Part shown: one piece after another, positions 5,211 through 45,505 of the stretch
Position numbering within the stretch: the first letter of the stretch is position 1
How the letters are laid out: every line of letters starts with the position of its first letter
Origin: an uncultured Lachnospiraceae bacterium
Lineage (GTDB): Bacteria; Bacillota; Clostridia; Lachnospirales; Lachnospiraceae
Direction: 5' to 3'
NCBI GenBank assembly: GCA_910588405.1
Contig: CAJUPT010000003.1
Span: 43,765-107,764, forward strand
DNA: 64,000 nt
Program-made: the position numbers and the translations under genes
Notes under the pieces: generated by a model
Told to the model about the DNA's origin: nothing
Seen by the model: only the letters and a program-made list of their open reading frames with translations
Database searches by the model: none

Positions 5211-5279
5211 AAGATTCGGATTGATTACAAACTATTCGCTTCAATAGGATCTCATTTATCTGATTATATTATAGAAAAT

Positions 5280-5314: not shown

Positions 5315-5362
5315 CGTGATCATTAACGCTTCTAGCGTTCCGTCTATATTGGTGATACATCC

Positions 5363-6739: not shown

Positions 6740-6793
6740 CTTTCCGCCTCCGGCTTTTTATGCATGCTCAGATGTTAAATTAAACCGAAATAT

Positions 6794-7679: not shown

Positions 7680-7717
7680 TTTTCATCCCCCTTTCACTTA
7701 TATAATATAACACGAAT

Positions 7718-8207: not shown

Positions 8208-8354
8208 ACTCCTGATCTCCTCCGGGAAGCATTTCCATCAAAATGCTTAGGCAAAACTGACTAACAGTCAATATATAAATTATTAAGTTTACATAAACTC
8301 ATCTTGACGAACAATTTTTTCGGGGGTAGTATAGAAATGGAAATTTTAAATCCA

Positions 8355-8462
8355 CCGGAAACAGCAACGCTCCGGACTACGGAATAGTAAGCGACTAAAG
8401 AACACCCGCTAACTATTCCGTATGCATCGCACGTAAGGGTCTAAAGACCAGACCCTTACGTG
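8355..8462 (+). promoter_or_regulatory. three consecutive hairpins upstream of the TetR gene (candidate leader RNA or operator cluster)
   Basis: ccgga-N11-tccgg (8355-8375); an 11-bp stem tacggaatagt/actattccgta (8378-8422); a 13-bp perfect stem cacgtaagggtct/agacccttacgtg (8430-8462). The last two loops share a CTAAAGA motif. Confidence 0.4.
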
Positions 8463-8567
8463 CTCATAGCAAAGCCCCGGGAGGACTTACTGACACTTCA
8501 GCGGCAGGAAATTCTCCCATACAAAGGGGCTTGGAAGGGGAGCTGCGGAACAGTAAATAAGGAAAAA

Positions 8568-9170: not shown

Positions 9171-9193
9171 CCCGCCCATTTTTTCTATCACCG

Positions 9194-11581
9194 CTACCAA
9201 AACACTTTCACATATCTAAAATACCATCTCTGCGCCGGATTCAGCCTGCCCTCCGTATACCGGCAGGCCGCCTCGTAAACCTTCCACACCTGCAAACGCT
9301 CTTCCGGACTGGGCGCTCCGATTCCGAAGGCAGCGCGATCCACTGCCGCCATAGCTTGTCTGGCCATCTCCAAATCGATTTCAGAAACGGTCTGTTCCAG
9401 TCTGGCCGCACAGACCGAAGCCCCCTCCTGAAAGCTTACCGGACAGCCCCCCAGCCGCATCACCTGCTCCAATCGGGCATACAGCTCCAAAGGACCATAT
9501 CGTTTTTGCCGAATCAGAATTCTGTTTCTTCGTTTCTCCATCAGTCTCATTCCGCCATATAAGGCCCCGCTTACCAGAACCAATCCAAATAACAGCGGTA
9601 AAAGCCAGGCTTTAAGAGTTTGAAGCAATGAATCTGCATTTTCACCATTCTTCTGATTTTCCGTCCCGTTTCCCCCAGAACCATCCTGTCCGTCATCAGA
9701 AGCGGAGGCATCCGTTTCTGTTTCCGTCTCTGCTGCCGCATCACTTTCCTCCGCCCCCGAGCCATTGTCCTCTTCGTGCTGTTCCGTGTTTTCTTCCATC
9801 TCCATGCCCTCCGTCTCCTGGTCTTCTTCCAAAGGCATCTCCGGCATATCATCCAGTTCAGGAAAACCATCCGTATTCTGACCCAAAAATGCGCCTTCTG
9901 ACAATACGCCCGCTTCATAGGCTGAGGGCGGCGTCGCCTCCACCGGAATCCACCCCAGGCCAGCCACATAGATCTCCGGCCAGGCATGAGCCAGGCTGTC
10001 CTGCACCACACTATTCCAATTCCCGTCCTCACCTGGGGAAAATTCTGCCACAGGGGCAATATATCCCGCCACATAACGGGCCGGAATTCCATACATCCGG
10101 TACATCAGCACCGCTGTCGTAGCATAGTGGACACAGTACCCCTGCTTTCTCTCAAACAAAAAATATTCCGGAATTTCCTCACCGGCAGGAATAACCCCCG
10201 GTGTCATCGAATAGGAGGTCTGACTGCGAAGCGTTCTCAGAATAAAATCCGTGGCTTCCTCCCAGCCGGACACAGGATTCTCCCTGCAAAGCGCAGCCAG
10301 CCTGGGAAACCGTTCCTCCTCCACCTGGGTATACTGCTCATATACATAATACGTGTATACCTCTTCCGTCAAATCCATGTCCGAATAGGGGGCCTCCCTC
10401 ATCAGATCATAATAGTCCGCCAGCGAATACCAAGAAAACTGTCTGACATCCTCCTCCTCTCCCCGGAAAGCAGAAATATAAGGAGACATGCCATACCGGT
10501 TCCCATCCTGATATCCTGGCAGCATCTTTACCGCCATCCACCTACTCCGATTCCCCCCCTGATCCACCTCATAAGCTTTCTGGTAAGTCAATTCTGCCAA
10601 ATATTGTTCCAACTCCCTCTGTTTTTGAGGATTCCAGGAAGCCCTTTCCTCCAGAAACGTCGTCTCGTCCGCCGGCTGCCATGCATCCCCTCCATAAGCT
10701 CCGCCTGTAAACTGTCGCAGATAAATGGTTTGTTTCGGCTGTTCCGATACCTTCACAGCCGCCACATCCTGCCCGGTCACGTGGCGGTTCCCCCTGCTGA
10801 CATGCCCATCCTCCCGAAGAGAAACAGACACCGGCAGCTGCTGCTGAATCTGAAGGGACTGACGAATCCCCTGCTCCACTGCCAAAGGAGCCTGAAACAG
10901 CATCTCCCTTTTATACCAGGTCAGGCCGGAGGCAAACGGTAAAATACAGGCTAACAGACAGGTCAGCGCTAAAATCCCCCATCCCTGGCTGCGGCGCAGT
11001 GTCTCTCTGCCAACACACAGCATTCCGTCCCGTTTTCTATAAGCGCTTGCCGCCATCGCCCTGTCACCCAGATGAAAAAAAGCAAGCAGGCAGATGGCCG
11101 TCAGATCCGGTACACCGGTCAACAGTGGTTTTATCGCCACCAAAAGCCCTGTTACCGGGTAAAGTAGACTCCCCTTGCAGAAAATTACGGAAAGCCAATA
11201 CAGAGCTACCGACGACAGCAATATCCATGCAACCAGCAAAAAGGTCAGATCCATCCCCTGAAATCCATTGGGCATCCAACCGAACAAAAGCAGATTAACC
11301 GCCGCCGACAGCTGTACGCCAAGCCATCTTCCGCCGATCGCAAAAACTGCGCCGCAAAGAGCCATCCCGGCGATCCCGGAATACACACGCCGATTCCCGA
11401 TCATCCCGAACAGACACATTCCGCCGCAGCAAAGAAAGGCTACCAAATAGACAACCGGAGGATTCCAGCCAAAATCCGCCAGTGATGTAACGGCACGCAA
11501 CATTCCAAGCACGCCGCAAAAATAATATATAAACTCTCCCATATTATATATAAATCCACCTTTGTTCCAGCTCCCGGACAT
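9194..11581 (-). CDS. transglutaminase-like domain membrane protein (TgpA/DUF4129-type) with acidic low-complexity C-terminal region
   Basis: Multi-TM N-terminus. Transglutaminase core YCVHYATTAVLMYRMYGIPARYVAGY carries the catalytic Cys. Long E/D/T-rich segment. Last gene of the MoxR-DUF58-TGase triad. Confidence 0.8.
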   Translation of the reverse strand: MSGSWNKGGFIYNMGEFIYYFCGVLGMLRAVTSLADFGWNPPVVYLVAFLCCGGMCLFGMIGNRRVYSGIAGMALCGAVFAIGGRWLGVQLSAAVNLLLFGWMPNGFQGMDLTFLLVAWILLSSVALYWLSVIFCKGSLLYPVTGLLVAIKPLLTGVPDLTAICLLAFFHLGDRAMAASAYRKRDGMLCVGRETLRRSQGWGILALTCLLACILPFASGLTWYKREMLFQAPLAVEQGIRQSLQIQQQLPVSVSLREDGHVSRGNRHVTGQDVAAVKVSEQPKQTIYLRQFTGGAYGGDAWQPADETTFLEERASWNPQKQRELEQYLAELTYQKAYEVDQGGNRSRWMAVKMLPGYQDGNRYGMSPYISAFRGEEEDVRQFSWYSLADYYDLMREAPYSDMDLTEEVYTYYVYEQYTQVEEERFPRLAALCRENPVSGWEEATDFILRTLRSQTSYSMTPGVIPAGEEIPEYFLFERKQGYCVHYATTAVLMYRMYGIPARYVAGYIAPVAEFSPGEDGNWNSVVQDSLAHAWPEIYVAGLGWIPVEATPPSAYEAGVLSEGAFLGQNTDGFPELDDMPEMPLEEDQETEGMEMEENTEQHEEDNGSGAEESDAAAETETETDASASDDGQDGSGGNGTENQKNGENADSLLQTLKAWLLPLLFGLVLVSGALYGGMRLMEKRRNRILIRQKRYGPLELYARLEQVMRLGGCPVSFQEGASVCAARLEQTVSEIDLEMARQAMAAVDRAAFGIGAPSPEERLQVWKVYEAACRYTEGRLNPAQRWYFRYVKVFW

Positions 11582-12785
11582 AGGTATCCGGCGAAAACTG
11601 CGTCAGCAAACCGTCTCTCCCATACAGCTGAAGCTCCGTGTCAAAATACAGCGCATTTCGCTCACCTGCCTGCCCAAATGCTGCGGGCTCAGTCTGAAAC
11701 AAGCCGCCATCCGGCAGCGACTTTACCCAGACAGGGCGCATATGAACCAGCACAGCGCTCATCGCCAGATGCCCTTCCTCATCAGACACTGGCATCTCAG
11801 TCCAGCCATTCCTGCCATCATCATACCAGCAGACCAGATGAGAGATGCCAGCAGCCAGAAGCCCTGCTGACAATGCCGCGGACAGCTCACGAAACGCATC
11901 CGGCCTCCATGGCTCCATCTGCCTCCTCGCCGTGCGCAAATCCAGCAGCAATCGGGCACAGTACGCCTCCTGCCCTCCATACTGCTTGCTTAACAGCTCC
12001 TCCGTCCTGGCGCTCAGCTTCCAGTGCACATCCCGCAGCGAATCTCCGGGCTGATAGGAACGAAGCTGTCTGATCTCATAAGGGTCTGTGCCCGCAGTCG
12101 TTCCATGATCCCAGTCAGCCAACTCTAACCCTGTTATATTTTGGCGAAAAATTTCCAGGCTTTCCGGCTGAAACCGGGCCAAGAGTCTGGAGGGCAACAC
12201 TGTCAGCGTCGTCTCGGTACATTGTTCGTTAAAGGTTTTTCCGTTTAAGGTACTTTCATTTAAACTTCTTCGCTTTAGATTTCTTCTCTTTAAAATACTT
12301 CTGCCCTTCGGTGGTTTTCTCCAGCTGTCGAATCTCTTTTTACGCAAAAAGAAATTCAGGTAGTCTGATACCCACATCTGACGCAGTCTGACCGACACGC
12401 CACCACAGTAATCCACTGGCAGAGGAACAGAAAGAACCGCCTTCCCTCTGCCGGCCACAGCGCCCCGAAGCAGGATTTTCCCTAGAGCAGAGCAGTCCAC
12501 AACAGCCTGCAGCTTAGGAATCGGCAAAAAACCCCGGTTTATCACCGTCACATGAGCCTCTGCATACTCCCCCTTCCGCACCATTTCATTGGAAAGCCCC
12601 ACCGAAATCTGAAGACCGGCAATAAAATACCAGGTCAGCACATACATAAGTACCAAAATCAACAGCATAGCGGCGGACAACAGCAGCAAACCATACATAT
12701 GATACCATCCCGCCATATAATAGGCCGTAAGCATCAGCGATAAATATCCGCCCAGACTCAAAAGCCTGGAAATCCAGGCGATCAT
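11544..12785 (-). CDS. DUF58 family protein (vWA-like, MoxR-associated)
   Basis: N-terminal TM hairpin, DVHWKLSART motif, and position between the MoxR ATPase and the transglutaminase gene. Its start overlaps the MoxR stop by 4 nt. Confidence 0.75.
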   Translation of the reverse strand: MIAWISRLLSLGGYLSLMLTAYYMAGWYHMYGLLLLSAAMLLILVLMYVLTWYFIAGLQISVGLSNEMVRKGEYAEAHVTVINRGFLPIPKLQAVVDCSALGKILLRGAVAGRGKAVLSVPLPVDYCGGVSVRLRQMWVSDYLNFFLRKKRFDSWRKPPKGRSILKRRNLKRRSLNESTLNGKTFNEQCTETTLTVLPSRLLARFQPESLEIFRQNITGLELADWDHGTTAGTDPYEIRQLRSYQPGDSLRDVHWKLSARTEELLSKQYGGQEAYCARLLLDLRTARRQMEPWRPDAFRELSAALSAGLLAAGISHLVCWYDDGRNGWTEMPVSDEEGHLAMSAVLVHMRPVWVKSLPDGGLFQTEPAAFGQAGERNALYFDTELQLYGRDGLLTQFSPDTYVRELEQRWIYI

Positions 12786-13735
12786 TCCTTCACTCCCTTA
12801 GGCGTCGGTTTTTTGACACTTTGCAGCAATTGAGCGATCACCTGCTCCTTTTTTACCTGCTCCATCCTGGCTTTTGCATTTAACTGAAGTCTGTGGATGA
12901 CCACATAGGCATATTGGCAGCTTACATCCTCCGGCGATACATAATCCCTGCCCCGCAGCCAGGCAAACGCCCTGGACATTTTCACCAATGCCATCGTGGC
13001 TCTGGGGCTTGCGCCCATTTCCAAATATGGGTGCTCTCTGGTGACACGCACCAGCTGTAAAATATAGTGATAGACCGCATCATGGATGTAGATACGCTCC
13101 GCCTCCGCCTGCATCCCGGCAAGCTCAGCCTCCGTCACCATGGCCGACAGCCTGTCCGTCCGTTTTCCGCTGTCCATTCCCTTCGCCATCAAAAGCTCAC
13201 TCTCCATATCCGGGTATCCCATGGTCATACAGATCATAAAACGGTCGATCTGGGCCGGCGGAAGCATCTGGGTCCCCGCCGCTCCATAAGGATTTTGGGT
13301 GGCAATCACAAAAAAGGGGCAGGGAACCTGTCTGGTAACGCCGTCTACAGTCACCTGTCCCTCCTCCATAACCTCCAAAAGCGCCGATTGAGTCTTCGGG
13401 GAAGTCCGGTTAATCTCGTCCGCCAGAAACAAATTAGTAAACACCGTTCCCGGCTGATAGACGAACTGCTGCAAATCTTTTCTGTATATGGAAAAGCCCA
13501 CGATATCCGAGGGCAGCACATCGGGCGTAAACTGCACCCTGCGCCACGCTAAGCCAAACACCTTTGAAAGTCCCAGCGCCAGCGTGGTCTTCCCCACTCC
13601 CGGAATATCCTCTAAAAGAACATGCCCTCCTGCCAGCATCGCGGCCACAATCTCCGCGGTCACTTCCTCCTTGCCCAGGATCACTTTATTCAGTTCATTC
13701 AGCACTTCCCATGCTTTTTCACGCAATCCGCTCAC
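12782..13735 (-). CDS. MoxR-family AAA+ ATPase
   Basis: Walker A GVGKTTLA, Walker B/sensor motifs LFLADEINR and VIATQNP. 317 aa. Confidence 0.9.
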   Translation of the reverse strand: MSGLREKAWEVLNELNKVILGKEEVTAEIVAAMLAGGHVLLEDIPGVGKTTLALGLSKVFGLAWRRVQFTPDVLPSDIVGFSIYRKDLQQFVYQPGTVFTNLFLADEINRTSPKTQSALLEVMEEGQVTVDGVTRQVPCPFFVIATQNPYGAAGTQMLPPAQIDRFMICMTMGYPDMESELLMAKGMDSGKRTDRLSAMVTEAELAGMQAEAERIYIHDAVYHYILQLVRVTREHPYLEMGASPRATMALVKMSRAFAWLRGRDYVSPEDVSCQYAYVVIHRLQLNAKARMEQVKKEQVIAQLLQSVKKPTPKGVKE

Positions 13736-26743: not shown

Positions 26744-28549
26744 TTATTTTATGCGGGTTAGAAGTACTACCGTCTCCACATTCCCCGTCCCCGGAAACAT
26801 ATCCACCATCCTCCACTTCTCCACCCGGTACCCCGCTGCCATCAGCATGTCCAGATCTCTCGCCAATGACGTCGGCTTACAGGAGATATAAATCATCCGC
26901 TCCACGCCATACTCCACGATCTTTTTAAGCGCTTTCGGATGAACTCCTTCCCTGGGCGGGTCCAGCACGATAAAATCCGGTCTCTGCGGTATTTCATCCA
27001 GCGCTTTCAGCACATCCGCCGCGATAAACGTACAATTCGCAAGCCCATTCAGCGCGGCATTCTCCCTGGCAGCCTGAACCGCCTCCTCCACAATCTCCAC
27101 GCCGATCACCTGCCCTGCTGCGGAGGCAAGCAATTGGGCGATAGTCCCGGTGCCGCTGTACAGATCAAACACTACCGGCGCAGTATCTCCGGCTTTCTCA
27201 GTCCCCTTATCTTTCCTGATCTCCTCTGCCTTCGCGGCTCCCTCAAAGCCTTCCTTCCTCTCCCGTTCGGAGGCCATCCCTACATACTCTCTAACCGCAC
27301 TGTAAAGCGCCTCCGCCCCCAGAGAATTTGTCTGAAAAAAGGAAAATGGCGTAATCTTAAACCGCAGCCCCAGCAGCTCCTCATAAAAATAATCCTGTCC
27401 ATACAAAATATCCGTCCGGTCACTTTGGACCACATCCGCCAGACTATCATTCACGATATGGAGCACACCGGTAATCATCCCCTGGCAGCCTGCAGATAAA
27501 AGCTCATTTACAAATTCTGAAAGCATCTCTGTTTCCGACCGAATGCCTTTTTCTATTCCCATACCACTTACATTTTCAGCGGCATCCCCAGATTCCAAAT
27601 CACTGCCTGTTCCAAAATTATTTTCTGCTTCCGGAATTTCTCTCATTTCAAAGTCATTCCCGGACTCCTGTCCACATTCTCCACCAAAACGGTTTCGATT
27701 TTCAAGATTCTCACCTACTCCATGATTCTTATCCGCTCCACGATTCTCCTTTACTCCCGATAGACCCCCGAACCGCGCATTATCTCTCGGATATTGACTG
27801 CTTGTCACCAGGCAAACCAGAATCTGTCCGGTTTTCACAGCTTTCCGCACCAGCAAATGCCGCAGATATCCCGTATGCTGCATTTTCCGATAGAAGGGCA
27901 GCCCCTTCCGGGTAAAAAAGTCCAGCGTTGCCCGCAAAATTTTTCGAAAATCCTCATGAACAATCTTACAATCCGCCACCGTGACAATATCATAAAAGCT
28001 GCCCCGCCTGTGCATACCCAGGGCAAGGGGGCCGTCCTTCATCGTATCCCCAAATGAAAATTCCATCTTATTCCGGTACTCCCGAAACTGCGGGCTGGGT
28101 GTAATGCCTTCATAGACGGCCGTCCACTCACAGTCATCCGCCTCCTCGCTGGCATCCGTCCCCTCACAGGCATCCGCCCTCTCACTGTCATCCGTCCCCC
28201 CACAGACATCTGCCTCCCCATATTTCTCCATCACAGGCCGCAGCAGACTGCGCACCTGTTCTTCTTTTATGCGCAGCTGTTCCTCATAAGGCAGTGTTTG
28301 ATACAGGCAGCCTCCACAGACTCCCGCATGGGAGCAGGCTTCCTGTCCATTTTCCAACGGCGACAGCTCCAAAACCTCCAACAGTATGGCTTCCGCCTTC
28401 CCCTTTTTCATTTTCCCGATACGAAACCGTACTCTCTGCCCAGGCAGCGCATATTTCATCGTCACCTTCCGCTCCTCCACATAAAGCCAGCCCTTATCCG
28501 GAAAATCTATCCCCTCTATCACACCTTCATAAATATCCCGTTTCTTCAT
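26744..28549 (-). CDS. 23S rRNA (uracil-5)-methyltransferase RlmD/RumA family (TRAM + 4Fe-4S + SAM MTase) with a large low-complexity insertion
   Basis: N-terminal TRAM (YEGVIEGIDFPDKGWLYVEE) and the Cys cluster CSHAGVCGGCLYQ. C-terminal MTase motifs DLYSGTGTIAQLLA and ...VLDPPREG...YISCKP. A ~200-aa G/E/N-rich insertion lies between them. Confidence 0.8.
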   Translation of the reverse strand: MKKRDIYEGVIEGIDFPDKGWLYVEERKVTMKYALPGQRVRFRIGKMKKGKAEAILLEVLELSPLENGQEACSHAGVCGGCLYQTLPYEEQLRIKEEQVRSLLRPVMEKYGEADVCGGTDDSERADACEGTDASEEADDCEWTAVYEGITPSPQFREYRNKMEFSFGDTMKDGPLALGMHRRGSFYDIVTVADCKIVHEDFRKILRATLDFFTRKGLPFYRKMQHTGYLRHLLVRKAVKTGQILVCLVTSSQYPRDNARFGGLSGVKENRGADKNHGVGENLENRNRFGGECGQESGNDFEMREIPEAENNFGTGSDLESGDAAENVSGMGIEKGIRSETEMLSEFVNELLSAGCQGMITGVLHIVNDSLADVVQSDRTDILYGQDYFYEELLGLRFKITPFSFFQTNSLGAEALYSAVREYVGMASERERKEGFEGAAKAEEIRKDKGTEKAGDTAPVVFDLYSGTGTIAQLLASAAGQVIGVEIVEEAVQAARENAALNGLANCTFIAADVLKALDEIPQRPDFIVLDPPREGVHPKALKKIVEYGVERMIYISCKPTSLARDLDMLMAAGYRVEKWRMVDMFPGTGNVETVVLLTRIK

Positions 28550-31501: not shown

Positions 31502-32500
31502 CTACTTCAGTTTCTGCCCACATTTAACACAAAAATTCGCATCCGCCGCTACCTGCGCTCCGCAGTTCGGGCAAAAGCCGCCGGCTGTCTGAGGCTGCGC
31601 CATAGCCTGGTTCATGTTCATCTGGCCCATGCCATTCGTCTGGTTCATGCCGTTCATCTGGTTCATATTATTCATCATCTGCTGACCCATCATCATCCCC
31701 ATCTGCATACCTACCATATCCTGGGCAATGCCTGAGCCAGCCTTTCCGTTTGACATGGCATCTGTCATAGCCACATTCTGATAGACACCCATGTTATTGC
31801 CAATCATGCTCTGGGCGGCTACCTTTTGCACCATCTGCTGGATTTCCTCCGGATAGGTAACGCTCTGAATCGCAAAGCCGGTCACGCCAATACCAATTTC
31901 CATCAGCTCCTCATTCAGATCCTGACTGATTCCCTTCGAAATATCATAGGCATTGGCCTGCAGGTTAAACATATCCTTGCCTTCCTTCGCGATCCATTTC
32001 ATCAGAAGCTGATCCAGCCGGCCGATCACCCGGTCACGCACCTCGTCCACGATAAACTGCTGCTTCACGCCAGCCACATTCTCAATCATCTTCATGTAGT
32101 CCGCCACTCTAAACTGAAAATTACCGAAGGCGCGCACAGGCATCCCGCCGGGCAGATTGGGCGCAGGAAGGTTAATGGCATTTTTCGTCCCCCATTTTAC
32201 ATTGAACTCCTTCGTGTTGACAAAAAGCACCTCCGCCCGCAGACCGCTGTTAAAGCCAAACTTAAAGCCGGCCAGCGTAGATAAAAAGGGAATAATATCT
32301 GACTCAATGTCATAATTCCCTTCATCCTTAAAAATCCCCTCAACAATCCCATTGTACATAAAAATAGCATCCTGTCCCTGTCGGATAATCAGGCGGCTGC
32401 CTTTTTTGATCTCTTTATTCGCAAACTTCCAAAAAATCACATCATCTCTATATTCTTCCCACTCCACTACACTGGACAACTGCCCGCTGAAAAGTCCCAT
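31502..32500 (-). CDS. SPFH/band-7 domain protein with C-terminal zinc ribbon
   Basis: N-terminal SPFH-like region, a Q/M/N/G-rich low-complexity segment, and a terminal FCPNCGAQV...FCVKCGQKL double CxxC. Confidence 0.7.
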   Translation of the reverse strand: MGLFSGQLSSVVEWEEYRDDVIFWKFANKEIKKGSRLIIRQGQDAIFMYNGIVEGIFKDEGNYDIESDIIPFLSTLAGFKFGFNSGLRAEVLFVNTKEFNVKWGTKNAINLPAPNLPGGMPVRAFGNFQFRVADYMKMIENVAGVKQQFIVDEVRDRVIGRLDQLLMKWIAKEGKDMFNLQANAYDISKGISQDLNEELMEIGIGVTGFAIQSVTYPEEIQQMVQKVAAQSMIGNNMGVYQNVAMTDAMSNGKAGSGIAQDMVGMQMGMMMGQQMMNNMNQMNGMNQTNGMGQMNMNQAMAQPQTAGGFCPNCGAQVAADANFCVKCGQKLK

Positions 32501-32724
32501 ATTTGGTTCTCCCTTCTCTGAAAATGAATTATGGTCCTATTATAGCAATGATTGGGTGGGATGTCACGTGGAATTTGCGGGGATTTTTTGTGCTTTAAAT
32601 TACTTTTTTTGGAATTTTTGCAAAAAAGAAGCAAATCATCCTTTTGGGCAATTCGCTTCCTTAAAATCTACTTCTTGCTGCTTATATGATCGATGCCCTA
32701 TCGGAAAACGTCACTTTGCATGTG

Positions 32725-33018
32725 CTACTTAAATAATTCATCATATGTGATATCCAACGCTTGTTTGATCGCTTTCAACTGCTTTACCTGCACATGTTGA
32801 GTCCCACGTTCTATTTTCACAAGACTTTCCCTGGTAATCGGTACCCCTTGCAGATCCAGCAACCGAACAAGTTCTGTCTGCCCTATGCCCATAGCCATCC
32901 TTGCTTCTCTGATGTTTTTTCCAAGATTTCCTTTTTCATCCTGTTTAATCTTCTGTTCCAACGTTCCTACCCCTTTTGAAGGTAAGCGCCTAGTTTCGCG
33001 GTGGATTGCCAAACCCAT
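32725..33018 (-). CDS. XRE-family HTH transcriptional regulator (start uncertain)
   Basis: HTH LGKNIREARMAMGIGQTELVRLLDLQGVPITRESLVKIERG. The true start may be internal, at an alternative start codon. Confidence 0.7.
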   Translation of the reverse strand: MGLAIHRETRRLPSKGVGTLEQKIKQDEKGNLGKNIREARMAMGIGQTELVRLLDLQGVPITRESLVKIERGTQHVQVKQLKAIKQALDITYDELFK

Positions 33019-33082
33019 ATGATCCTGTCATAATTGTAATAACAAATGCAAGCATTTTACTCTGCAACCAATACAAGTTTTG

Positions 33083-33400
33083 TCAGTGATTCAAATCATT
33101 ACTGTTATAAATGATATTTTCTATATTCAAACAAAAGTCAATCTCATTGTTTTCCTTTCTCGCAATATCATATAATGCTTTATATTTTCTTTCCAATTGT
33201 AAATAATAAGAATCCAGAAACCAAAAGGCAATAACCGGTATATAGAGAAAAATAAAATACTCTTGCTTCATTGTCTGATCCAATAGCACGATGATTGCAC
33301 TCGCAAAAGTAACTGACCATCCCTTTAATAAAAATGAGTTACTAGCCATCCGCTTAATAATTTCCTGAATCATTTCCAAATACTTTAATTTGTCTTCCAT
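33083..33400 (-). CDS. small 2-TM membrane protein of unknown function (SLATT/DUF4231-like architecture?)
   Basis: 105 aa. Amphipathic N-helix (LKYLEMIQEIIKRMASNSFLLKGW), two TM helices, C-terminal helix. Sits directly upstream of the XRE regulator on the same strand. Confidence 0.5.
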   Translation of the reverse strand: MEDKLKYLEMIQEIIKRMASNSFLLKGWSVTFASAIIVLLDQTMKQEYFIFLYIPVIAFWFLDSYYLQLERKYKALYDIARKENNEIDFCLNIENIIYNSNDLNH

Positions 33401-33771
33401 TTTTCTCCGTATATGATGTTTATAAAAGCAAAAAAATCATATTCCCTTCATTTTAATTTCGTGATATAACACATTTAATCTCACAAAATCCAAAAATTTT
33501 ATAGCTTATGTTTTGATATCAAACTGTGCTACATCCTATTTTAAGAAATAACCTTTCAGTGCCATAACATTATGTTCTTTCCGTTCCAAATACTTGGCAT
33601 ATATATTATATTAATAATTCAAAAAATAATGGGACTATTATTAGTTCTCGACAGCCAGATTTTTCAAAAAATACCTAATATTCTATTTTTCGACATTCAC
33701 CATTATACAGTACGGCATCTATCATACCAGATTTTTCCAACCATCCGTTAACCTCTACAAAAATTGTATTT

Positions 33772-33800
33772 TTGTCAGAAGATGCTCAAAATCGTATAAT
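33772..33800 (+). promoter_or_regulatory. sigma-A-like promoter (TTGTCA-17-TATAAT) in the AT-rich region upstream of the GT8 genes
   Basis: ttgtca 33772-33777, 17-nt spacer, tataat 33795-33800. Confidence 0.4.
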
Positions 33801-34121
33801 TTCAGTTGTTTTTGCAGCCTCATAAAACCTTATGAAGTAAAGCTATCCATATATCTAAGTAGTTGAGAACAATATTTCAAAAGTTTTAAACACAAACCCA
33901 AAAGCAATAAAACCATTTTAATCCCCAGCGAAAAACTGATATATTTTCAAACAAATTTATATATTTATTTCAACCATCTCCTTCCCATTTCCCAAATTTT
34001 ATAGTATTATAGAATCAAATCATCTTTTCCTGATGCTTTGACCTTGCTTTAGAGAAAAAATGAGGCAATACCCTCAAACCCATAGTGTCGGAAAACAACA
34101 ACCAGCAAAAGAGGTATCCAT

Positions 34122-35150
34122 ATGAATGCAACACCTATCCCACAGCACCATTATAATATTCTTACATCTTCTGACGATACACTGTTCATACAAATAGCCG
34201 TATCCCTCACGGCCATGGCCAAATCTTTGCAAAATGACCAGATAGACTTTTATCTTATGCACAGCCAGATCAGCCGGGAGCATATCGAAATGTTCGATGC
34301 CTTATGCACAGGATGCGGAAATATTCGTTTCCACGAGGTACGCATACCCCGTCCGGAAATATTTGATCCTCTAGTTGAGGCCGGCGGCTGGTTCAGGGAA
34401 ACCTATTACCCGCTTTTGGCTCATCAGCTGCTGCCGGACTCAATTGACCGCATATTATATCTTGACGCAGGCGATACATTGGTTATCGGAGATATTTCGC
34501 CCTATTATATGGCAGATTTTCAGGATAATTTCCTGCTTGTGACTGGGATGGAATATAAAAGAGACGGAGAGAATTTTGTACCTTTATCTGAAGAAGATAT
34601 TAAAAAAGAAGAGTTCCTTCCAACAATTATCACAGGTCTTTTTAACTCTGGTTCTTATATGATAAATATCAAGAAAATGCGTGAAACCAACATAGATATT
34701 TCCTATTATTATCAAATTACTGAAAAATTGCGCAAATGCGGAGCACAAATTGGAAGAGGGATAAACAATTTCTATTTTGCTAATGATCTAAACAAAATCG
34801 TTATTTATAAAGGCGACCAGGGGCTTCTTTCTGCCGCTTTTATCGGGAGTCTTACATATTTTGGATACCCGCAAATACAGGATAAAGCCTATATGCCCTA
34901 TAACTTTGCCGTCGGCTACTACAGATATTTGGATCAGGAACCTGGTTACGAACCCGCTATCCTCCATTTCGTCGGCGGTCCCTATAAACCCTGGCAGGGT
35001 AATTATCCCATTTTCCCGGAACGCTTTACTAGGGTCGGAGATACTGCCAGAGAACTTTCAGAGCTAGCTCCCGGACAGATCAAATATTATTTCATGTGGC
35101 TTGAATATTTATTTCTTATGGATCAAATATTAACCTTACTAGGTTACTGA
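34122..35150 (+). CDS. glycosyltransferase family 8-like protein (putative flagellin glycosyltransferase), paralog 1
   Basis: HYNILTSSDDTL(F)IQIAVSLTAM and the DxD-region LYLDAGDTLVIGDISPYY fit the GT8 LYLDAD..v.gDi motif. Lies next to fliC. Confidence 0.65.
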   Translation: MNATPIPQHHYNILTSSDDTLFIQIAVSLTAMAKSLQNDQIDFYLMHSQISREHIEMFDALCTGCGNIRFHEVRIPRPEIFDPLVEAGGWFRETYYPLLAHQLLPDSIDRILYLDAGDTLVIGDISPYYMADFQDNFLLVTGMEYKRDGENFVPLSEEDIKKEEFLPTIITGLFNSGSYMINIKKMRETNIDISYYYQITEKLRKCGAQIGRGINNFYFANDLNKIVIYKGDQGLLSAAFIGSLTYFGYPQIQDKAYMPYNFAVGYYRYLDQEPGYEPAILHFVGGPYKPWQGNYPIFPERFTRVGDTARELSELAPGQIKYYFMWLEYLFLMDQILTLLGY

Positions 35151-35177
35151 TAAACCAGGCAGACGGAGGACAAATAC

Positions 35178-36164
35178 ATGAACACCACGCAGACGCAGCA
35201 CAATCACTACAACATCTTAACTTCATCCGATAACACCCTGATTCCTCAGATCGCTGTTTCCCTCACTGCCATGGTGAAAAATCTTTCCAGTGATTTTATC
35301 GACTTTTATATTCTCCACAGTCAGATCACTTCGGACAATCTGCAGCTGCTCTCCGCTTTATGCAGCGGATATGGAAATATTGCTTTCCATGAGGTCCGGA
35401 TAGACAACCCAGAAATATTCGATCCCCTTGTTCAAGCAGGCAGCTGGTTTAGAGAAACCTACTTCCCTTTGTGCGCTCATCAGCTGCTGCCCGATACGGT
35501 TGACCGTGCATTATATCTGGATGCCGGCGATATTTTAGTGCTTGGAGATATCTCTCCATATTACTACTGCAATTTCGAAGATAATTTCCTGACAGTAACC
35601 GGCACGCACCATAAGACGGACAATCATTCATATATTCAGTTTTCTCCCGATGATATTAACATTCCCGCGTTTCTCCCCGGCATCCTTGAGGGACTCTTTA
35701 ACTCAGGCTCCTATATGATCAACCTGAAAAAGATGCGCGAAACAAAGATCGATATTTCATATTATTATCATCTCACGGAACAGCTTGGCAGCCTCAAGAC
35801 AAAAACAGAAGAGTTTGTCTATTTCGGAGATCAGGGACTGCTCTCCGCAGCATTTATCGGCAAAATGAAATATTACGGCTATCCACAGATACAGGACCAA
35901 TATTACTGGCCTTATAATTTTTGTCTCGGATACTATGATCATTTTGACCATAAACCTGATTATCAGCCGGCTATTCTCCATTTTGCAGGTGTTCCTTTTA
36001 AGCCATGGAAGGCCAATTATCCGATGTTTCCCAAACGGTTTCAGACCACCGGCGGCACGCCTCGGGAATTAACTGAGCTGAAACCGATTTTAATAGAATA
36101 TTATTTCCTCTGGCTGGAATATTTATTTCTCACAGATCAAATTATGACCATGCTGGGATTTTAA
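35178..36164 (+). CDS. glycosyltransferase family 8-like protein, paralog 2 (tandem duplicate of 34122..35150)
   Basis: Roughly 60% identical along its length to the preceding ORF. Same motifs (LYLDAGDILVLGDISPYY). Confidence 0.65.
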   Translation: MNTTQTQHNHYNILTSSDNTLIPQIAVSLTAMVKNLSSDFIDFYILHSQITSDNLQLLSALCSGYGNIAFHEVRIDNPEIFDPLVQAGSWFRETYFPLCAHQLLPDTVDRALYLDAGDILVLGDISPYYYCNFEDNFLTVTGTHHKTDNHSYIQFSPDDINIPAFLPGILEGLFNSGSYMINLKKMRETKIDISYYYHLTEQLGSLKTKTEEFVYFGDQGLLSAAFIGKMKYYGYPQIQDQYYWPYNFCLGYYDHFDHKPDYQPAILHFAGVPFKPWKANYPMFPKRFQTTGGTPRELTELKPILIEYYFLWLEYLFLTDQIMTMLGF

Positions 36165-36301
36165 ACCTCTTAAAAATAAAGAATTCCATAATTCAGGGGA
36201 GATTACGATTGATCCGATCCACAATCTCCCCTGCCTGAAATTCTTTATTATTTCAACATTTTCTTTTTTCTGTCCTTCGCTCTTTTTTCTCTCTGTTCCT
36301 T

Positions 36302-37603
36302 TCATTCTTTTCTTTTGTCCAGCACCCTCAATTCCTCTTCCGTACAATACCCGCGGATCGCCTGCAGCACACCTTCTCCTTCCGCTCCCGCGCTGATTGC
36401 GCCCCTGAGCATCAAGATCCGATCAGTGATATCATTCAGATTGTACAGCTTGCACAAAAAACCTACCACAGCCTGAGGATCTTCCTCTTTAAAACAGCGG
36501 ATCAGAAGCTCCAGCGCAGTAACCTGACCTTTATCAATCCGCAGCAACCCCACGCAGCTGCTCACACAGCTTTCTATTTTTCCGTTTTTGTAATAGCAAA
36601 AGGCTAACGCTTTCCAGACCTCGGGAATATCAGATGACATCATGGGATTATAGGCTTTTGTCCCATACTGCTCCGCTCCGGCCAGCGCCTTCTCAAAATG
36701 ATGCTCTGCCTTCTGATAATCCTGCTTTTCCAGATAGAACCGTCCCGCCAGATAATCCAGATCATAAAAACCGGTAAACTGGGCGCTGGCTTTTCGGTAA
36801 ACCTCCATCAACTCCTGTTCCAGGTCCTGTTTCATCAAAATCGTCATCAGTAATGCAATGGTCTGAACATCACGCTCCGTAGTTCTCGCGCGGGCAAAAA
36901 TATGGGGCAGCGCCTCCCGATAATATTGCAGTGCTTTTTCTTTCTCTTCCTCCACCCCTCTGTAAGCATCTCCCAGATAGCCCAGCAAATCCGGATCTTG
37001 AGGATTTTTCCTCAATTCCTTTAAAAGAATGCCGATATTCCTTCTGGATTTTGCCTCGGACAGCTCGGAGATATAACCCGTATGATAAATGGAGAGACCA
37101 GTAGCATCCAGCATATGGCACTCCATATTTTTCCCTTCATAATACAGACACTCGTGAATCGGCTTGTCATAACGGATTTTTTTCGTATTTCGAAAGATAC
37201 GGCACTGTCTGGCCACCATGGCTACCGACTGATCGTCGCCCACCTGAAGCCAGAGCGTATACAACCCTTCAAGCCCCAGCTTTTCCGCCTTTTTAATCAC
37301 AGCGGGAACCTTGCACATATCCTCAGGTTCCATATACTCATCCGCGTCCAGAAAAGCAATCCAGTTACCGGAAGCCTGTTCAATGGCAAAATTTTTAGCG
37401 GCGGCAAAATCGTCGATCCAGGCAAAATGAAACACCTTTGCCCCCATTCGCTCCGCGATCTCCACAGTCCGATCCGTGCTGCCCGTATCCACCACAATCT
37501 GCTCCCACATAATCTCCTTTCCCCAGGAGAGGGCTTTTTCAATATTCCGCTCTTCATTCTTCACAATCATACACTGTGAAAGCCTCAGTTTTCCTGTCCC
37601 CAT
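36302..37603 (-). CDS. family 2 glycosyltransferase fused to TPR repeats (flagellin-modification type)
   Basis: N-terminal GT2 (CMIVKNEERNIEKAL...VDTGSTDRTVEIA...DADEYM) with a C-terminal TPR-like helical repeat region. Convergent with fliC. Confidence 0.75.
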   Translation of the reverse strand: MGTGKLRLSQCMIVKNEERNIEKALSWGKEIMWEQIVVDTGSTDRTVEIAERMGAKVFHFAWIDDFAAAKNFAIEQASGNWIAFLDADEYMEPEDMCKVPAVIKKAEKLGLEGLYTLWLQVGDDQSVAMVARQCRIFRNTKKIRYDKPIHECLYYEGKNMECHMLDATGLSIYHTGYISELSEAKSRRNIGILLKELRKNPQDPDLLGYLGDAYRGVEEEKEKALQYYREALPHIFARARTTERDVQTIALLMTILMKQDLEQELMEVYRKASAQFTGFYDLDYLAGRFYLEKQDYQKAEHHFEKALAGAEQYGTKAYNPMMSSDIPEVWKALAFCYYKNGKIESCVSSCVGLLRIDKGQVTALELLIRCFKEEDPQAVVGFLCKLYNLNDITDRILMLRGAISAGAEGEGVLQAIRGYCTEEELRVLDKRKE

Positions 37604-37731: not shown

Positions 37732-38571
37732 TTACTGCAGCATACTCAGAACGCCCTGCGGTGTTGCATTGGCCTGGGTCAGCATGGACTGAGCAGCCTG
37801 AAGCAGGATGTTGTTCTTCGTGTAAGCAGTGATCTCATCAGCCATATCAGTATCGCGGATACGTGACTCAGCGGCCGTGATGTTCTCGGAGCTTACCTGT
37901 AAGCTGTTGATCGTATGCTCCAGACGGTTCTGAGCAGCACCAAGCTCTGCACGGAACTTAGACACTTTATTAATTGCCGCATTCACAGTATCGATAGCTT
38001 CATTAGCGTCCTTAACATTCAGACACTTACCATTCAACGCTACACTTAACGACCCAACATCCATATTGGATGTATTAACCAAAATTGTCTCTGCTGAGCT
38101 GGGACCGATCTGGAATGTCATAGTGCCAGCCTGATTCAGAGGCTTAATTCCGTTAAAGCTCGTACTCTTCGCAATACGGTTAATTTCATCTTCCAGCTTT
38201 TGAAGCTCAACCTGAATATTCTCTCTGGCGGTTTTTTCCGTAGAACCATTGGTTGTGCCATCTGAATAAGTACCATTAGCAGCCTGCGTAAACAGCGTAG
38301 CCATACGATTCAACATAGAGTGAGTCTCGGTCAAAGCACCTTCAGCAGTCTGGATCATACCGATTGCATCTCTTGCGTTCGTTACGGACTGATTTAATCC
38401 GGCGATCTGCGCTCTCATCTGCTCGGAAATAGCAAGACCGGCAGCGTTATCACCTGCACGGTTGATCTTATAACCGGAAGACAGCTTCTCAAGGTTTTTG
38501 CTTAACTGGCTCTGGTTCGTACCTAAGTTTCTGTAAGAATTAATAGCTGATATGTTGTGTTGGATAATCAT
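37732..38571 (-). CDS. fliC: flagellin
   Basis: Conserved N-terminus (MIIQHNISAINSYRNLG...LSSGYKINRAGDNAAGLAISE) and C-terminus (AAQNRLEHTINSL...ESRIRDTDMADEITAY...LLQAAQSMLTQAN) flank a short variable domain. Confidence 0.95.
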   Translation of the reverse strand: MIIQHNISAINSYRNLGTNQSQLSKNLEKLSSGYKINRAGDNAAGLAISEQMRAQIAGLNQSVTNARDAIGMIQTAEGALTETHSMLNRMATLFTQAANGTYSDGTTNGSTEKTARENIQVELQKLEDEINRIAKSTSFNGIKPLNQAGTMTFQIGPSSAETILVNTSNMDVGSLSVALNGKCLNVKDANEAIDTVNAAINKVSKFRAELGAAQNRLEHTINSLQVSSENITAAESRIRDTDMADEITAYTKNNILLQAAQSMLTQANATPQGVLSMLQ

Positions 38572-39119
38572 AAAGTTTCCCTCCTGTTTTGAATTTCTTC
38601 AGGGACTTCCTTGTCCCCGTTCCCTTACCTTATTCGCCGGGCCCTGGCAAATAAGTTCCCCGAAGGGATGTAAGGTATTTTGCTTTACATTTATTATATC
38701 GTCACTTTTCAGGGAACATTAATAGGTTTTTTATATTTTTTATATTATTTTTCTCCTGCGTCAGCAATAAACAGCCGCTCAAATCAGTCCGGCCAGCAGC
38801 TCGGGGATCTCATCCACCGTAACCCAGATGAGACAGATACCGAATAACAGGACATGTTAATCAAAACTTTTTATTCATCCTTTCCATGCTAACTCCTCTC
38901 CTAAAATTAATCATCCTGCTATCTTAAACATATAAATGCTGACGTCAGTTAAGTATTGCACGTTATTTCATAATTATGAAGTCTTTTCAATGGTTTTTAA
39001 CAACAGTTTCAAAAGCATCACCGCTCTTCCAAATTTCATATTTTCATAACTTTTGTAATCTTTTGAGAAAAAACGCCGATAATATAACTATATGGGTACT
39101 ATTTGAAAAGGAGGGTGTC

Positions 39120-39401
39120 ATGAACGTAAAATTATATACTATCAACACGGAGTATCCTGATTGCCGTTCCATCACGCCGGCAGCGGGACGGACGGACAAT
39201 TCGGACACTTCCTTTATAAAAGGAAAGCCGTCCGCCGATTACGACAGAATTACGATTCGTGGTTCACAAGAGCAGATTACTGAGACGGTACCTTCGGAAC
39301 GGGTGATGGCGCTGCGTCAACAGGTGATGAACGGAACTTACCGGACAGACTCCCGGCAGATCGCTGAAAGCCTGCTGGCTTATGGCTTGATGACGCATTA
39401 A
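39120..39401 (+). CDS. flgM: anti-sigma-28 factor FlgM
   Basis: C-terminal motif VMALRQQVMNGTYRTDSRQIAESLL fits the FlgM sigma-28-binding helix. Start at ATG 39120 has a GGAGGG RBS; the tracked ORF start at 38976 is probably spurious. Confidence 0.75.
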   Translation: MNVKLYTINTEYPDCRSITPAAGRTDNSDTSFIKGKPSADYDRITIRGSQEQITETVPSERVMALRQQVMNGTYRTDSRQIAESLLAYGLMTH

Positions 39402-43480: not shown

Positions 43481-43966
43481 ATGAAGTTGATTACCACAGA
43501 CTATGGTGATATTCAATATGAAAAAGAAGATTTGATTCTGTTTTCAGATGGATTGTTTGGCTTTACTGACCTGACAGAATATCTTTTGATCTGTCTTAAT
43601 GATGAGGATAATTCTCTGTTGATCCTCCAATCCACACAAAGGCCCGAGATATCCTTTGCGGTAATTAATCCTGTACTCCTGTGTCCGGATTATTCTCCTG
43701 TCCTTACTCCTGAGGAACTGTTTTCTATGGGAGTTAAGGACAGCGAGGATTTATCCTATTATGCAATCTGCATTGTTAAAAAAGATTTACAAGACAGTAT
43801 GGTGAATCTGAAATGTCCTCTGGCTATCAATCCCCAGACACTGAAGGGAATGCAGGTTATTTTGGAGGGTTCATATTATCAGTTCCGTCACCGAATAGGC
43901 GATCTTCTCCAGGATTCCGAAAACACTGAAAGCGGGAGTGAGACAAATGCTGATATTGAGACGTAA
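43481..43966 (+). CDS. fliW: flagellar assembly factor FliW
   Basis: FliW family pattern (LILFSDGLFGF, EYLLICLNDEDNSLLILQS, AINPQTLKG) and position before csrA. Confidence 0.85.
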   Translation: MKLITTDYGDIQYEKEDLILFSDGLFGFTDLTEYLLICLNDEDNSLLILQSTQRPEISFAVINPVLLCPDYSPVLTPEELFSMGVKDSEDLSYYAICIVKKDLQDSMVNLKCPLAINPQTLKGMQVILEGSYYQFRHRIGDLLQDSENTESGSETNADIET

Positions 43967-44222
43967 AAAAGATGAAAGCATATTGATTGGGGATAATATC
44001 CGGATTACAATTGTGGAATGTGGTTCGGAAGGAGTCCGAATTGCAATTGATGCGCCAAAACAGATTTCAATTTTACGGGAAGAACTGTCAAAGGCAGAAG
44101 TTGTCAATAAAGATGCCTTGACACCCCAAAGTGAATATCTTCAAACGATGCAGACGGCCTTACATCATCTATATCATCCTAAAATCGGAAATATGGAGCA
44201 AAAAAATCCCCCGGAAAAATAA
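43947..44222 (+). CDS. csrA: carbon storage regulator CsrA
   Basis: MLILRRKKDESILIGDNIRITIVE...GVRIAIDAPK is the CsrA signature. Overlaps the fliW 3' end by 20 nt. Start set at ATG 43947, which has a GGGAG RBS. Confidence 0.9.
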   Translation: MLILRRKKDESILIGDNIRITIVECGSEGVRIAIDAPKQISILREELSKAEVVNKDALTPQSEYLQTMQTALHHLYHPKIGNMEQKNPPEK

Positions 44223-44314: not shown

Positions 44315-45505
44315 TTAGTTACGTCTGATAAATAAAAAACGAATTAAACGCATCAACCAACAGAAAGGAAGAAGTAAAGGCATTTTCTCCAATATAGGAT
44401 AAATTGTACACATATAGCGATATTCCGGAAAAGCCCAACGGAATTTTCGCCCCGCTTCCTGTCGGCGCTCCGCATTTCTCTGTTTCCACCGTTCAAACCG
44501 TTCCTGTCGGCGCTCTTTGTTCTCACTTTTTTCAATCATTTCCCGTAAAACTATGGCTTGCTGATCAATTTCATAATCCTCATTATTTAAAATACCTCTG
44601 CTAAGAATCCGATTTTCCAATACATCGTATTCTTCCGGTTCATAACGTTGATCCTCTTCCAGCTTTAGCTCCTCCTGAGAGCCAAACCACATATACGACA
44701 AATGCAAAAGCTTATCAGCCAGCCGTTCAACGCAAAAATCAGACAGAACTTTTTTCACATGAGCCTGATTAATCTGTTCCTGCCATGTTTTATGATACAG
44801 ATATAGATCCATAAGCTCTCGTATCACCAGCTCATCCTGCGCATAACGGTATGCACATTTCGCCATGTAAAAAATAAACCGATCCACAACAGACAGTGTT
44901 CTCACTGTATGATAAGGTTCCTTGACAAATACTCGCCTTAAAAGAAACTGCATTTGCTTCTCATACGCATGGGTTTGAAATGGAGGTTTCCGGAAAATCT
45001 CTACATAGATTCCCGATACACGTTTCATTCGCTCTCCAAATCCAGAATAAAAACGATCAGTTTCATAGCCCAGATCTACTAAATACCCTTTCGCCAGTAC
45101 ATAGCTTTCTTCATCCATTAAAAGCCGCAATGGAATATTGGAAGCCGCTTCAGGAAGCTGATAAAGATTCCTGAAATCACAAGACTCTAATATTGCACAG
45201 GAAATATTCCGCATATCCAATAACGCCAGGACTTCCTGTTCCGCTTCCTTGCAAATTTCCCCATACTGCAGCCCTTGCCAATAACGTTCTGCAAAAGAAT
45301 CCTGCCATTTCTGCGGAATCTTCTTCCCATTGCCCAGCATAGACAGATAAACTAAATTCGTAATCTTATGGTAATCTGCAACCCGGTAAATCCTTTCCCA
45401 ATCCAACTGTCCCCTGATTGGACGCTGATCATCCTGCCGGATAAATGCTCCTGCCATATTTACGAGAAAACGTCCTTCTATTATCAATCGATTATTCATA
45501 AACAT
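44315..45505 (-). CDS. uncharacterised nucleotidyltransferase-family protein
   Basis: 396 aa with an N-terminal NTase-like region and a basic C-terminal tail (ERRQERFERWKQRNAERRQEAGRK). No clear catalytic motif found by eye. Confidence 0.4.
   Translation of the reverse strand: MFMNNRLIIEGRFLVNMAGAFIRQDDQRPIRGQLDWERIYRVADYHKITNLVYLSMLGNGKKIPQKWQDSFAERYWQGLQYGEICKEAEQEVLALLDMRNISCAILESCDFRNLYQLPEAASNIPLRLLMDEESYVLAKGYLVDLGYETDRFYSGFGERMKRVSGIYVEIFRKPPFQTHAYEKQMQFLLRRVFVKEPYHTVRTLSVVDRFIFYMAKCAYRYAQDELVIRELMDLYLYHKTWQEQINQAHVKKVLSDFCVERLADKLLHLSYMWFGSQEELKLEEDQRYEPEEYDVLENRILSRGILNNEDYEIDQQAIVLREMIEKSENKERRQERFERWKQRNAERRQEAGRKFRWAFPEYRYMCTIYPILEKMPLLLPFCWLMRLIRFLFIRRN

Follow-up and report, generated by a model that had tools for sequence, protein, structure and literature searches.

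Two GT8 glycosyltransferases with a glycine-inserted DxD motif beside a Lachnospiraceae flagellin gene: candidate extenders of a flagellin O-glycan

Two GT8 enzymes next to a flagellin gene

Within a stretch of 64,000 nucleotides from the assembly of an uncultured Lachnospiraceae bacterium of the mouse gut (contig CAJUPT010000003.1; the whole stretch is called the window below, and coordinates given without a locus name are its own) two genes for family-8 glycosyltransferases, GT8-A and GT8-B, stand in tandem close to the flagellin gene fliC and to a gene for a family-2 glycosyltransferase with tetratricopeptide repeats (GT2-TPR) that resembles the flagellin glycosyltransferase GmaR. We propose that the two GT8 enzymes extend a GmaR-type O-glycan on flagellin, a reading to which we give a probability of roughly 0.55. 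The features that bear on it most directly are the following:

34122..35150, forward strand: GT8-A, a family-8 glycosyltransferase of 342 amino acids, A-type clade
35178..36164, forward strand: GT8-B, a family-8 glycosyltransferase of 328 amino acids, B-type clade
36194..36233, no strand assigned: inverted repeat CAGGGGAGAT...ATCTCCCCTG, seen on inspection of the sequence, in the gap where GT8-B and GT2-TPR converge
36302..37603, reverse strand: GmaR-like GT2-TPR glycosyltransferase of 433 amino acids, with Pfam Glycos_transf_2 and TPR matches
37732..38571, reverse strand: fliC, a short flagellin of 279 amino acids, with Pfam Flagellin_N and Flagellin_C matches
38696..38722, reverse strand: candidate sigma-D/FliA-like promoter of fliC, TTAAT-N14-GACGATAT, from a pattern scan and reading of the sequence

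An initial annotation of this DNA had drawn both GT8 reading frames and placed the GT2-TPR gene directly beside fliC, and all of these assignments hold. GT8-B starts only 27 bp past the end of GT8-A, and the two genes therefore probably form one operon. The inverted repeat downstream of GT8-B is likely to be a two-way terminator; it was missing from the output of our terminator scan, probably since its loop of 20 nucleotides exceeds the 3-8 nucleotides which that scan allows.

Both proteins match the Pfam profile PF01501 (Glyco_transf_8), with 61.4 bits for GT8-A and 78.7 bits for GT8-B against a cut-off of 24.3. The region of the DxD motif reads LYLDAGDTLVIGDISPYY in GT8-A and LYLDAGDILVLGDISPYY in GT8-B, which bears out to the letter the LYLDAGD motif recognized in the initial annotation. 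GT8-A, whose ATG is preceded by a good ribosome-binding site (AAGAGG), keeps the LYLDAGD, NSG, GDQG and HFxGxxKPW motifs, and in an alignment of 26 homologs both aspartates of D-A-G-D and the NSG, GDQG and HFxGxxKPW motifs are invariant or nearly so; the residues H268, K275, P276, W277, N175, G177, D218 and Q219 are invariant in all 26 and present in both paralogs. The conserved motif residues of the family are those which bind the metal and the sugar-nucleotide in GT8 enzymes. Judged by these motifs, GT8-A and GT8-B would be active retaining GT-A enzymes that use a uridine diphosphate (UDP)-sugar and a metal ion.

The AlphaFold model of GT8-B (predicted local distance difference test score 93.2, predicted template modelling score 0.92) has a GT-A fold like that of LgtC and glycogenin, and its 61% identity to GT8-A suggests the same fold for the latter. 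Foldseek searches with this model retrieved Neisseria LgtC (E 1e-16), the Anaerococcus prevotii structure 3TZT (E 5e-14) and GlyE (E 1e-11), as well as WbbM, LARGE1, UGGT, XXYLT1 and glycogenin. LgtC, which acts on lipo-oligosaccharide, and 3TZT are the best solved matches in both sequence and fold, and the NxG, DQ and HxxGxxKPW motifs are common to them and the window proteins. They differ in the metal-binding motif: LgtC (YLDID) and 3TZT (YLDPD) have a canonical D-x-D, whereas the window proteins have D-A-G-D, and profile alignments against both open a one-residue gap opposite this motif.

Of 1.84 billion cluster representatives searched exhaustively, only 65 matched at E<=1e-30; the number rose to 230 at E<=1e-10 and to 1,681 at E<=1e-3. 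Among the closest representatives (about 90) in which the motif region is preserved, nearly all have the form D-[AST]-G-D, and the canonical LYLD[IV]D becomes prevalent only past E ~1e-20. On this sequence distribution we place GT8-A and GT8-B in a small and well-delimited subclade of GT8 with a glycine inserted into the DxD motif, its size being about 65 clusters when counted at 50% identity and E<=1e-30.

Over their full length the two paralogs share 61% identity (E 1e-160), with 65% identity in nucleotides over the aligned codons, and where a residue is common to both the third codon position is identical in only 45% of cases, which is near saturation. A neighbour-joining tree places GT8-A in a clade with P0045, P0047 and the two GT8 copies of locus L074, and GT8-B in one with single-copy GT8 genes of many other species. 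As the paralogs thus fall into separate clades together with homologs from other genomes, the tree dates the A/B split to before the origin of this species. They had been described as clear tandem duplicates, which fits their layout and identity but not a recent duplication. The same annotation placed their greatest divergence after the DxD motif; this is roughly true of residues 151-180 (16 of 30 identical), but residues 31-60 are lower still (14 of 30), and GT8-A additionally carries an insertion of 13 residues directly before the GDQG motif. Mapped on the GT8-B model, the insertion falls in the loop between the helix 193-206 and the helix of the DQ motif, which by analogy with LgtC would adjoin the active site, and it is plausible for that reason that GT8-A and GT8-B differ in the acceptors or donors for which they are specific. 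The 3' end of GT8-A contains, where the conserved C-terminal aromatic helix is encoded, a weak tandem repeat of 22 bp (35078-35131; 2.5 copies, 72% matches).

The best solved relative of the GT2-TPR protein is the catalytic domain of GmaR (PDB 22ao_A, E 3.3e-28, residues 8-199), followed by the peptide S-glycosyltransferase SunS, and the Pfam families TPR_2, TPR_12 and TPR_19 match at residues 194-369. Homologs are abundant: at E<=1e-30 they number over 2,372, most of them from Lachnospiraceae. GmaR is the established flagellin O-GlcNAc transferase of Listeria, adding N-acetylglucosamine (GlcNAc) (PMC9638930), and from this relationship the GT2-TPR enzyme is presumed to be an initiating flagellin O-glycosyltransferase, with FliC as its presumed acceptor. 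The gene at 37732..38571 is the sole flagellin gene of the window, and its product is rich in serine and threonine at residues 91-120 (9 of 30) and 151-180 (8 of 30).

Linkage to flagellin genes and a variable flanking region

Two scans of the collection with the family alignment gave 103 non-redundant GT8 loci. A flagellin was counted where its gene lay within the DNA examined around the locus. By this count a flagellin gene is present at 15 of the 103 loci, at 10 of the 62 loci of at least 8 kb, and at 5 of the 14 loci of at least 8 kb whose GT8 is at least 60% identical to GT8-B, which represent the window's own clade; for a random gene we estimate the expected proximity to fliC at about 1-3%. 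A GT2-TPR gene is also present at 10 of the 15 flagellin-linked loci.

The GT8 of this subclade adjoins both fliC and GT2-TPR in L013, L014, L017 (Otoolea muris), L018, L021, L036, L044, L078 and L088, in differing arrangements. L013, whose fliC-adjacent GT8 is 77% identical to GT8-B, has the order fliC-fliC/GT8/GT2TPR; L014, L017 (strain DSM 111138) and L018 have GT8-fliC-fliC-GT2TPR, and L021 has fliC-GT2TPR-GT8. Larger assemblages are found at the P0111 locus, which comprises two fliC genes, GT2-TPR, a UDP-glucose dehydrogenase, GT8, a GT1-like gene and Glf, and at L053 (Defluviitaleaceae, 3117-13308), where fliC is accompanied by a gene for a 400-amino-acid protein, a GT2, four GT8 genes in tandem and an FkbM methyltransferase. 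The loci that hold the closest kin of GT8-A, L074 and L128, carry the whole fliC-GT2TPR-GT8 module twice in inverted orientation; GT8 begins 77 bp past GT2-TPR in L074, and an 85-amino-acid TIR fragment lies between the two genes in L128. A termite-gut contig (L107) has the order GT8-fliC-GT8-fliC. The linkage of the fliC-GT2TPR-GT8 trio thus persists across species despite shuffled gene orders, although it is not universal. Tandem arrays of D-A-G-D type paralogs also occur with five members in a Ruminococcus sp. (L063, 6188-10843) and three in Epulonipiscium (L056, 7713-10791), and arrays of up to five GT8 genes are seen with no fliC in view.

Past fliC the window continues into a flagellar block, with flgM, flgN, flgK, flgL, fliW and csrA on the forward strand and a gene of the PF14907 family, fliS and fliD on the reverse strand. 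From fliD to flgM the flagellar genes of the relative L127 are ordered as in the window, followed by fliC and a GT2-TPR 64% identical to that of the window, but L127 has no GT8; a second fliC and then a cluster containing Tubulin_2 stand there instead. Because a genome with the same flagellar gene order lacks the GT8 genes, the evidence supports the view that the pair forms an accessory cassette, placed at the edge of the conserved flagellar block where gene content varies. Further cargo is seen at this edge in other genomes. A HicB gene lies between the two modules of L074, and L003, whose locus proteins are otherwise near-identical to those of the window, has genes for SIR2_2 (495 amino acids), a 939-amino-acid protein and a 61-amino-acid protein inserted between fliC and flgM (L003 14058-18670, corresponding to about 38.6-38.9 kb of the window), likely a defence system that has inserted into this variable region too. 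At this edge of the flagellar block, glycosyltransferase and defence genes are exchanged among close relatives.

The composition of the GT8 genes carries no such signal. The initial annotation had contrasted the whole segment with a core genome of about 55% guanine plus cytosine (GC) and considered horizontal acquisition likely, but the window has 48.1% GC and its genes average 48.4% (standard deviation 5.1), with a third-position GC (GC3) of 0.55 (standard deviation 0.09). GT8-A (40.9% GC, GC3 z-score -1.55) and GT8-B (43.0%, -0.72) resemble the flagellar genes at 37.7-49 kb (40-47% GC, GC3 0.39-0.50), and GT2-TPR has 48.3% GC and a GC3 average for the window. As the GT8 genes are no outliers against their flagellar neighbours, we rejected GC content and codon usage as evidence of their transfer. 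Acquisition by transfer nonetheless retains the support of gene content, namely the lack of GT8 in L127 and the two A-type copies in the inverted modules of L128 and L074.

A possible role in flagellin glycan extension

The locus shares its basic organization with known systems of flagellin glycosylation. Like GmaR of Listeria monocytogenes, its closest solved relative, the window's GT2-TPR enzyme joins a GT2 catalytic domain to TPRs and is encoded beside a short flagellin. Clostridioides difficile has several glycosyltransferase genes immediately downstream of fliC, three of them in type B, and its flagellin glycan has an O-GlcNAc base (type A O-GlcNAc); the window is like type B in that further glycosyltransferase genes adjoin fliC. 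It differs from both systems in that the additional enzymes are GT8 and not further GT2 proteins, and in that no genes for sugar-nucleotide synthesis or post-glycosylation modification were identified among the genes examined at the locus.

Extension of a protein O-glycan by GT8 enzymes is known from another setting. GlyE, annotated in the PDB as a glycosyltransferase of Streptococcus pneumoniae, is together with GlyD a GT8 enzyme of the pathway that glycosylates the serine-rich-repeat adhesin PsrP, and the two extend an O-GlcNAc-initiated glycan in the cytoplasm. The fold of GlyE is like that of GT8-B, and its pathway follows the same logic of initiation and extension that we propose here; it differs in having only about 20% sequence identity, another acceptor protein and a greater length (about 390 residues).

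A GT8 that acts on flagellin has been described in Aeromonas hydrophila ATCC 7966, where AHA_4170 lies in the polar flagella glycosylation island and its deletion truncates the flagellin glycan (bioRxiv 10.1101/2024.06.23.600306); this shortening identifies it as an extender. AHA_4170 is like the window enzymes in family and in its setting in a flagellar glycosylation island, and it differs in its Gram-negative host and in a glycan built on a pseudaminic acid linking sugar that is placed by Maf enzymes. Our literature search found no paper linking GT8 to flagellin glycosylation in Firmicutes. The statement of the initial annotation that such loci typically hold GT2-family enzymes and not GT8 therefore stands as far as frequency goes, GT2-TPR being the commoner enzyme and GT8 a rarer accessory, but the Aeromonas protein provides a precedent. 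Its view of the segment as a flagellin glycosylation locus is plausible in light of the GmaR-like enzyme (E 3e-28) and of the GT8-fliC-GT2-TPR linkage in other species.

Based on these observations we propose the following scheme. The GmaR-like GT2-TPR enzyme would add the first O-linked sugar, most likely GlcNAc, to surface serines and threonines of FliC in the cytoplasm before export; GT8-A and GT8-B would then each add a different alpha-linked hexose, or use different acceptor positions. The sugar donors would be housekeeping UDP-sugars, since no genes for sugar-nucleotide synthesis were identified among those examined around the locus.

Several observations weigh against this scheme. The GT8 pair is transcribed convergently to GT2-TPR and fliC, in a separate operon, and it has no convincing sigma-D promoter ahead of it. 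The D-A-G-D motif deviates from the canonical DxD, and its competence for metal binding is predicted. Unrelated insertions are frequent at the locus, which weakens adjacency as evidence, and about 85% of the subclade loci (88 of 103) have no flagellin gene in the DNA examined. In L075 (8930-13368) a GT8 that is 75% identical to GT8-B stands alone in the spoIIIA operon, on the opposite strand, between spoIIIAH and the upstream spoIIIA genes; homologs at 46-48% identity occur in unrelated contexts, and several lie in large clusters of polysaccharide type, such as those of L015 and L009 with GT2, GT2_5, LicD, GT11 and methyltransferase genes. The GT8 of L007 adjoins AraC-APH and RNase T genes. 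Such contexts would be expected if the GT8 enzymes had an acceptor other than flagellin, be it a cell-wall or capsular polysaccharide, a spore or S-layer component or another protein, and fliC merely marked a landing site of accessory genes, as is also suggested by the convergent orientation of the pair, its flank of probable defence remnants and the unrelated cargo at the same position in relatives. We regard this explanation as rather unlikely: the trio stays linked in several species despite rearranged orders, and it is duplicated as a unit in L074/L128 and in L107. Moreover, some of the clusters that look polysaccharide-related have types of gene in common with flagellin islands that are proven or likely. 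A GT2-methyltransferase fusion of the type found in polysaccharide-type GT8 clusters adjoins fliC in L129, and the L009 cluster carries FdtA/DegT-type genes of the Fuc3N pathway, of which an FdtB homolog has been implicated in the type B flagellin glycan of C. difficile; some of these clusters may for these reasons be flagellin islands themselves.

A role on flagellin would also be compatible with a GT8 that initiates directly on serine or threonine, in parallel to GT2-TPR or independently of it. Some enzymes of GT8 fold, such as glycogenin, do modify protein side chains, and the termite-gut contigs L107, L109, L110, L113 and L096 pair GT8 with fliC and show no GT2-TPR in the DNA examined. Four of these five contigs are short (3-5 kb), however, so that GT2-TPR may lie outside them, though L096 has none over 13 kb; GT8 co-occurs with GT2-TPR in all Lachnospiraceae loci with enough DNA (10 of the 15 fliC-linked loci), and the best structural analogs retrieved by Foldseek, LgtC, GlyE, XXYLT1 and LARGE1, are glycan extenders. 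Direct initiation accordingly seems improbable to us, and extension of a glycan started by the GmaR-like enzyme is the reading that we prefer.

If extension by the GT8 pair holds, the locus shows which enzymes assemble O-glycans of several sugars on flagellins of commensal Lachnospiraceae, and it draws attention to a GT8 subclade that is uncharacterised and has an altered metal-binding motif. It is not a new kind of system, as islands that combine an initiating transferase with accessory extenders are familiar. A wider and distinctly more tentative idea, which we consider doubtful, is that the D-A-G-D subclade as a whole is a family dedicated to flagellin glycan extension in Clostridia of the gut and the termite gut. 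If it were true, flagellins would gain a more diverse sugar coat from the differing number of GT8 copies by fliC (between one and at least four), and the glycine-inserted DxD would represent a true variant of GT8 catalysis. Flagellins of Lachnospiraceae are major immune antigens of the gut, and strain-variable glycan extension could then alter their recognition by antibodies or TLR5.

The Lachnospiraceae island of L129 (4002-15740) illustrates how large flagellin islands can grow: two flagellin genes and six paralogs of the GT2-TPR family, three of them with clear TPR matches, are joined there by the GT2-methyltransferase fusion, then sugar-nucleotide genes and three radical-SAM/SPASM genes.

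The AT-rich spacer and other features of the window

Upstream of GT8-A lies an AT-rich region which the initial annotation had taken for a leader of the glycosyltransferase genes. It is bounded on its other side by genes of a different kind:

32725..33018, reverse strand: XRE-type helix-turn-helix regulator of 97 amino acids, with Pfam HTH_3 and PADLOC HTH_VI and control-protein matches
33083..33400, reverse strand: truncated PDC-M50A-like two-transmembrane gene of 105 amino acids, a PADLOC match
33401..34121, no strand assigned: AT-rich spacer of 721 bp, free of open reading frames, between the divergent 105-amino-acid gene and GT8-A
33772..33800, forward strand: best sigma-70-like promoter candidate within the spacer, TTGTCA-17-TATAAT, 11 of 12 positions matching
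33918..33942, forward strand: weak sigma-D-like candidate upstream of GT8-A, TTAAT-N13-CTGATAT

The spacer is as AT-rich and devoid of genes as had been described (29.4% GC, longest open reading frame 59 amino acids). Together with the 105-amino-acid gene, which the initial annotation did not mention (29.6% GC, GC3 z-score -2.15), it makes up the sole true compositional outlier, 33019..34121 at 29-30% GC, the remaining intergenic regions above 500 bp in the window having 41-46% GC.

A functional leader of the GT8 operon, in the form of a long structured 5' untranslated region, a riboswitch or a small RNA, would account for the position of the spacer directly upstream of GT8-A, for its sigma-70-like matches and one weak sigma-D-like match, and for its perfect conservation in six other assemblies. 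The locus proteins of these six are themselves near-identical, however, so that the identity of the spacer is uninformative on constraint. A structured RNA or riboswitch was rejected, since an Rfam search gave no match within the spacer at E<=1 and its folding was no better than that of shuffled sequences (z-scores -1.45 and +0.28); Pfam and PADLOC searches with six-frame translations (E<=1) and a blastn search against plasmids likewise found no match. In the other species examined neither a similar sequence nor any long AT-rich stretch precedes the GT8 genes, several of which begin 50-80 bp past GT2-TPR, and the composition of the spacer is that of the adjoining truncated defence gene. We therefore consider a leader function very unlikely, and the spacer is probably a gap between GT8-A and a decayed defence insert that carries the promoters of both divergent genes.

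As to promoters, 29 sigma-70-like matches were found in the spacer region against 17.7 expected, AT-rich DNA giving many such matches. A sigma-D promoter before GT8-A was rejected as a candidate: no exact consensus occurs, and the relaxed scan, which turned up good candidates at fliC and flgM, gave here only the weak match at 33918..33942 (about 0.13 such matches expected by chance in the stretch), whose spacing is 2-3 nucleotides shorter than at fliC (TAAT-N14-GACGATAT) and flgM (TAAT-N15-GCCGATAA, 39056-39082, forward strand) and which is not conserved in the regions upstream of the relatives' GT8 genes.

The 105-amino-acid gene matches the PADLOC profile PDC-M50A (E 3e-36, 122.6 bits, profile positions 1-103 of 134) and also phrog_19896, which makes it a candidate component of anti-phage defence. 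Its homologs have 130-150 amino acids, and in the window copy the C-terminus is about 35 residues short, with the last hydrophobic helix missing. Elsewhere the full-length protein is partnered by a ThsB-like TIR protein (in a Vibrio element and a Clostridium genome), by a DUF4062 protein with an HTH_3 gene upstream, or by a 761-amino-acid protein of no assigned family, and a search of phage proteins retrieved only three Vibrio elements, in which the gene follows a ThsB-like TIR gene. This variety of partners suggests that the PDC-M50A-like protein is a modular membrane effector of TIR-type systems. Our literature search for 'PDC-M50' found no paper.

Neither a TIR, DUF4062 or 761-amino-acid partner nor a recognisable remnant of one was found at 32400-34400. 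The possibility that the spacer is a decayed partner gene was rejected, as tblastn searches with TIR/ThsB, SEFIR-TIR, DUF4062, 761-amino-acid and helix-turn-helix proteins gave only chance-level matches. An 18-nucleotide direct repeat (16 of 18 matching, 32627-32644 and 34011-34028) flanks the segment of low GC (32.6%) and may be a scar of insertion, but it does not exceed chance, from which we expect about 0.6 such repeats by our estimate. No empty site lacking the low-GC islet was found. We read the region from 32.65 to 34.0 kb as what is probably left of a small insert, of defence or mobile DNA, that has decayed.

Several minor features concern the flagellar genes. Close to the ribosome-binding site, the 5' untranslated region of fliC (38580-38722, reverse strand) has several GGA motifs; fliW and csrA follow downstream at 43481-44222 (forward strand), an arrangement that is consistent with FliW-CsrA control of flagellin translation. 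The open reading frame of 141 amino acids at 38976-39401 over-extends flgM, whose actual start is probably at 39120, giving 93 amino acids. The PF14907 gene ('uncharacterised nucleotidyltransferase'; 44315-45505, reverse strand) lies between csrA and fliS and is kept in the flagellar block of L127 too. Elsewhere in the window, a tRNA/rRNA U5-methyltransferase-like gene (26744-28549, reverse strand) has long acidic and glycine-rich low-complexity insertions, and the length of its product differs by assembly, with 601 amino acids in L001, 606 in L005 and 625 in L003.

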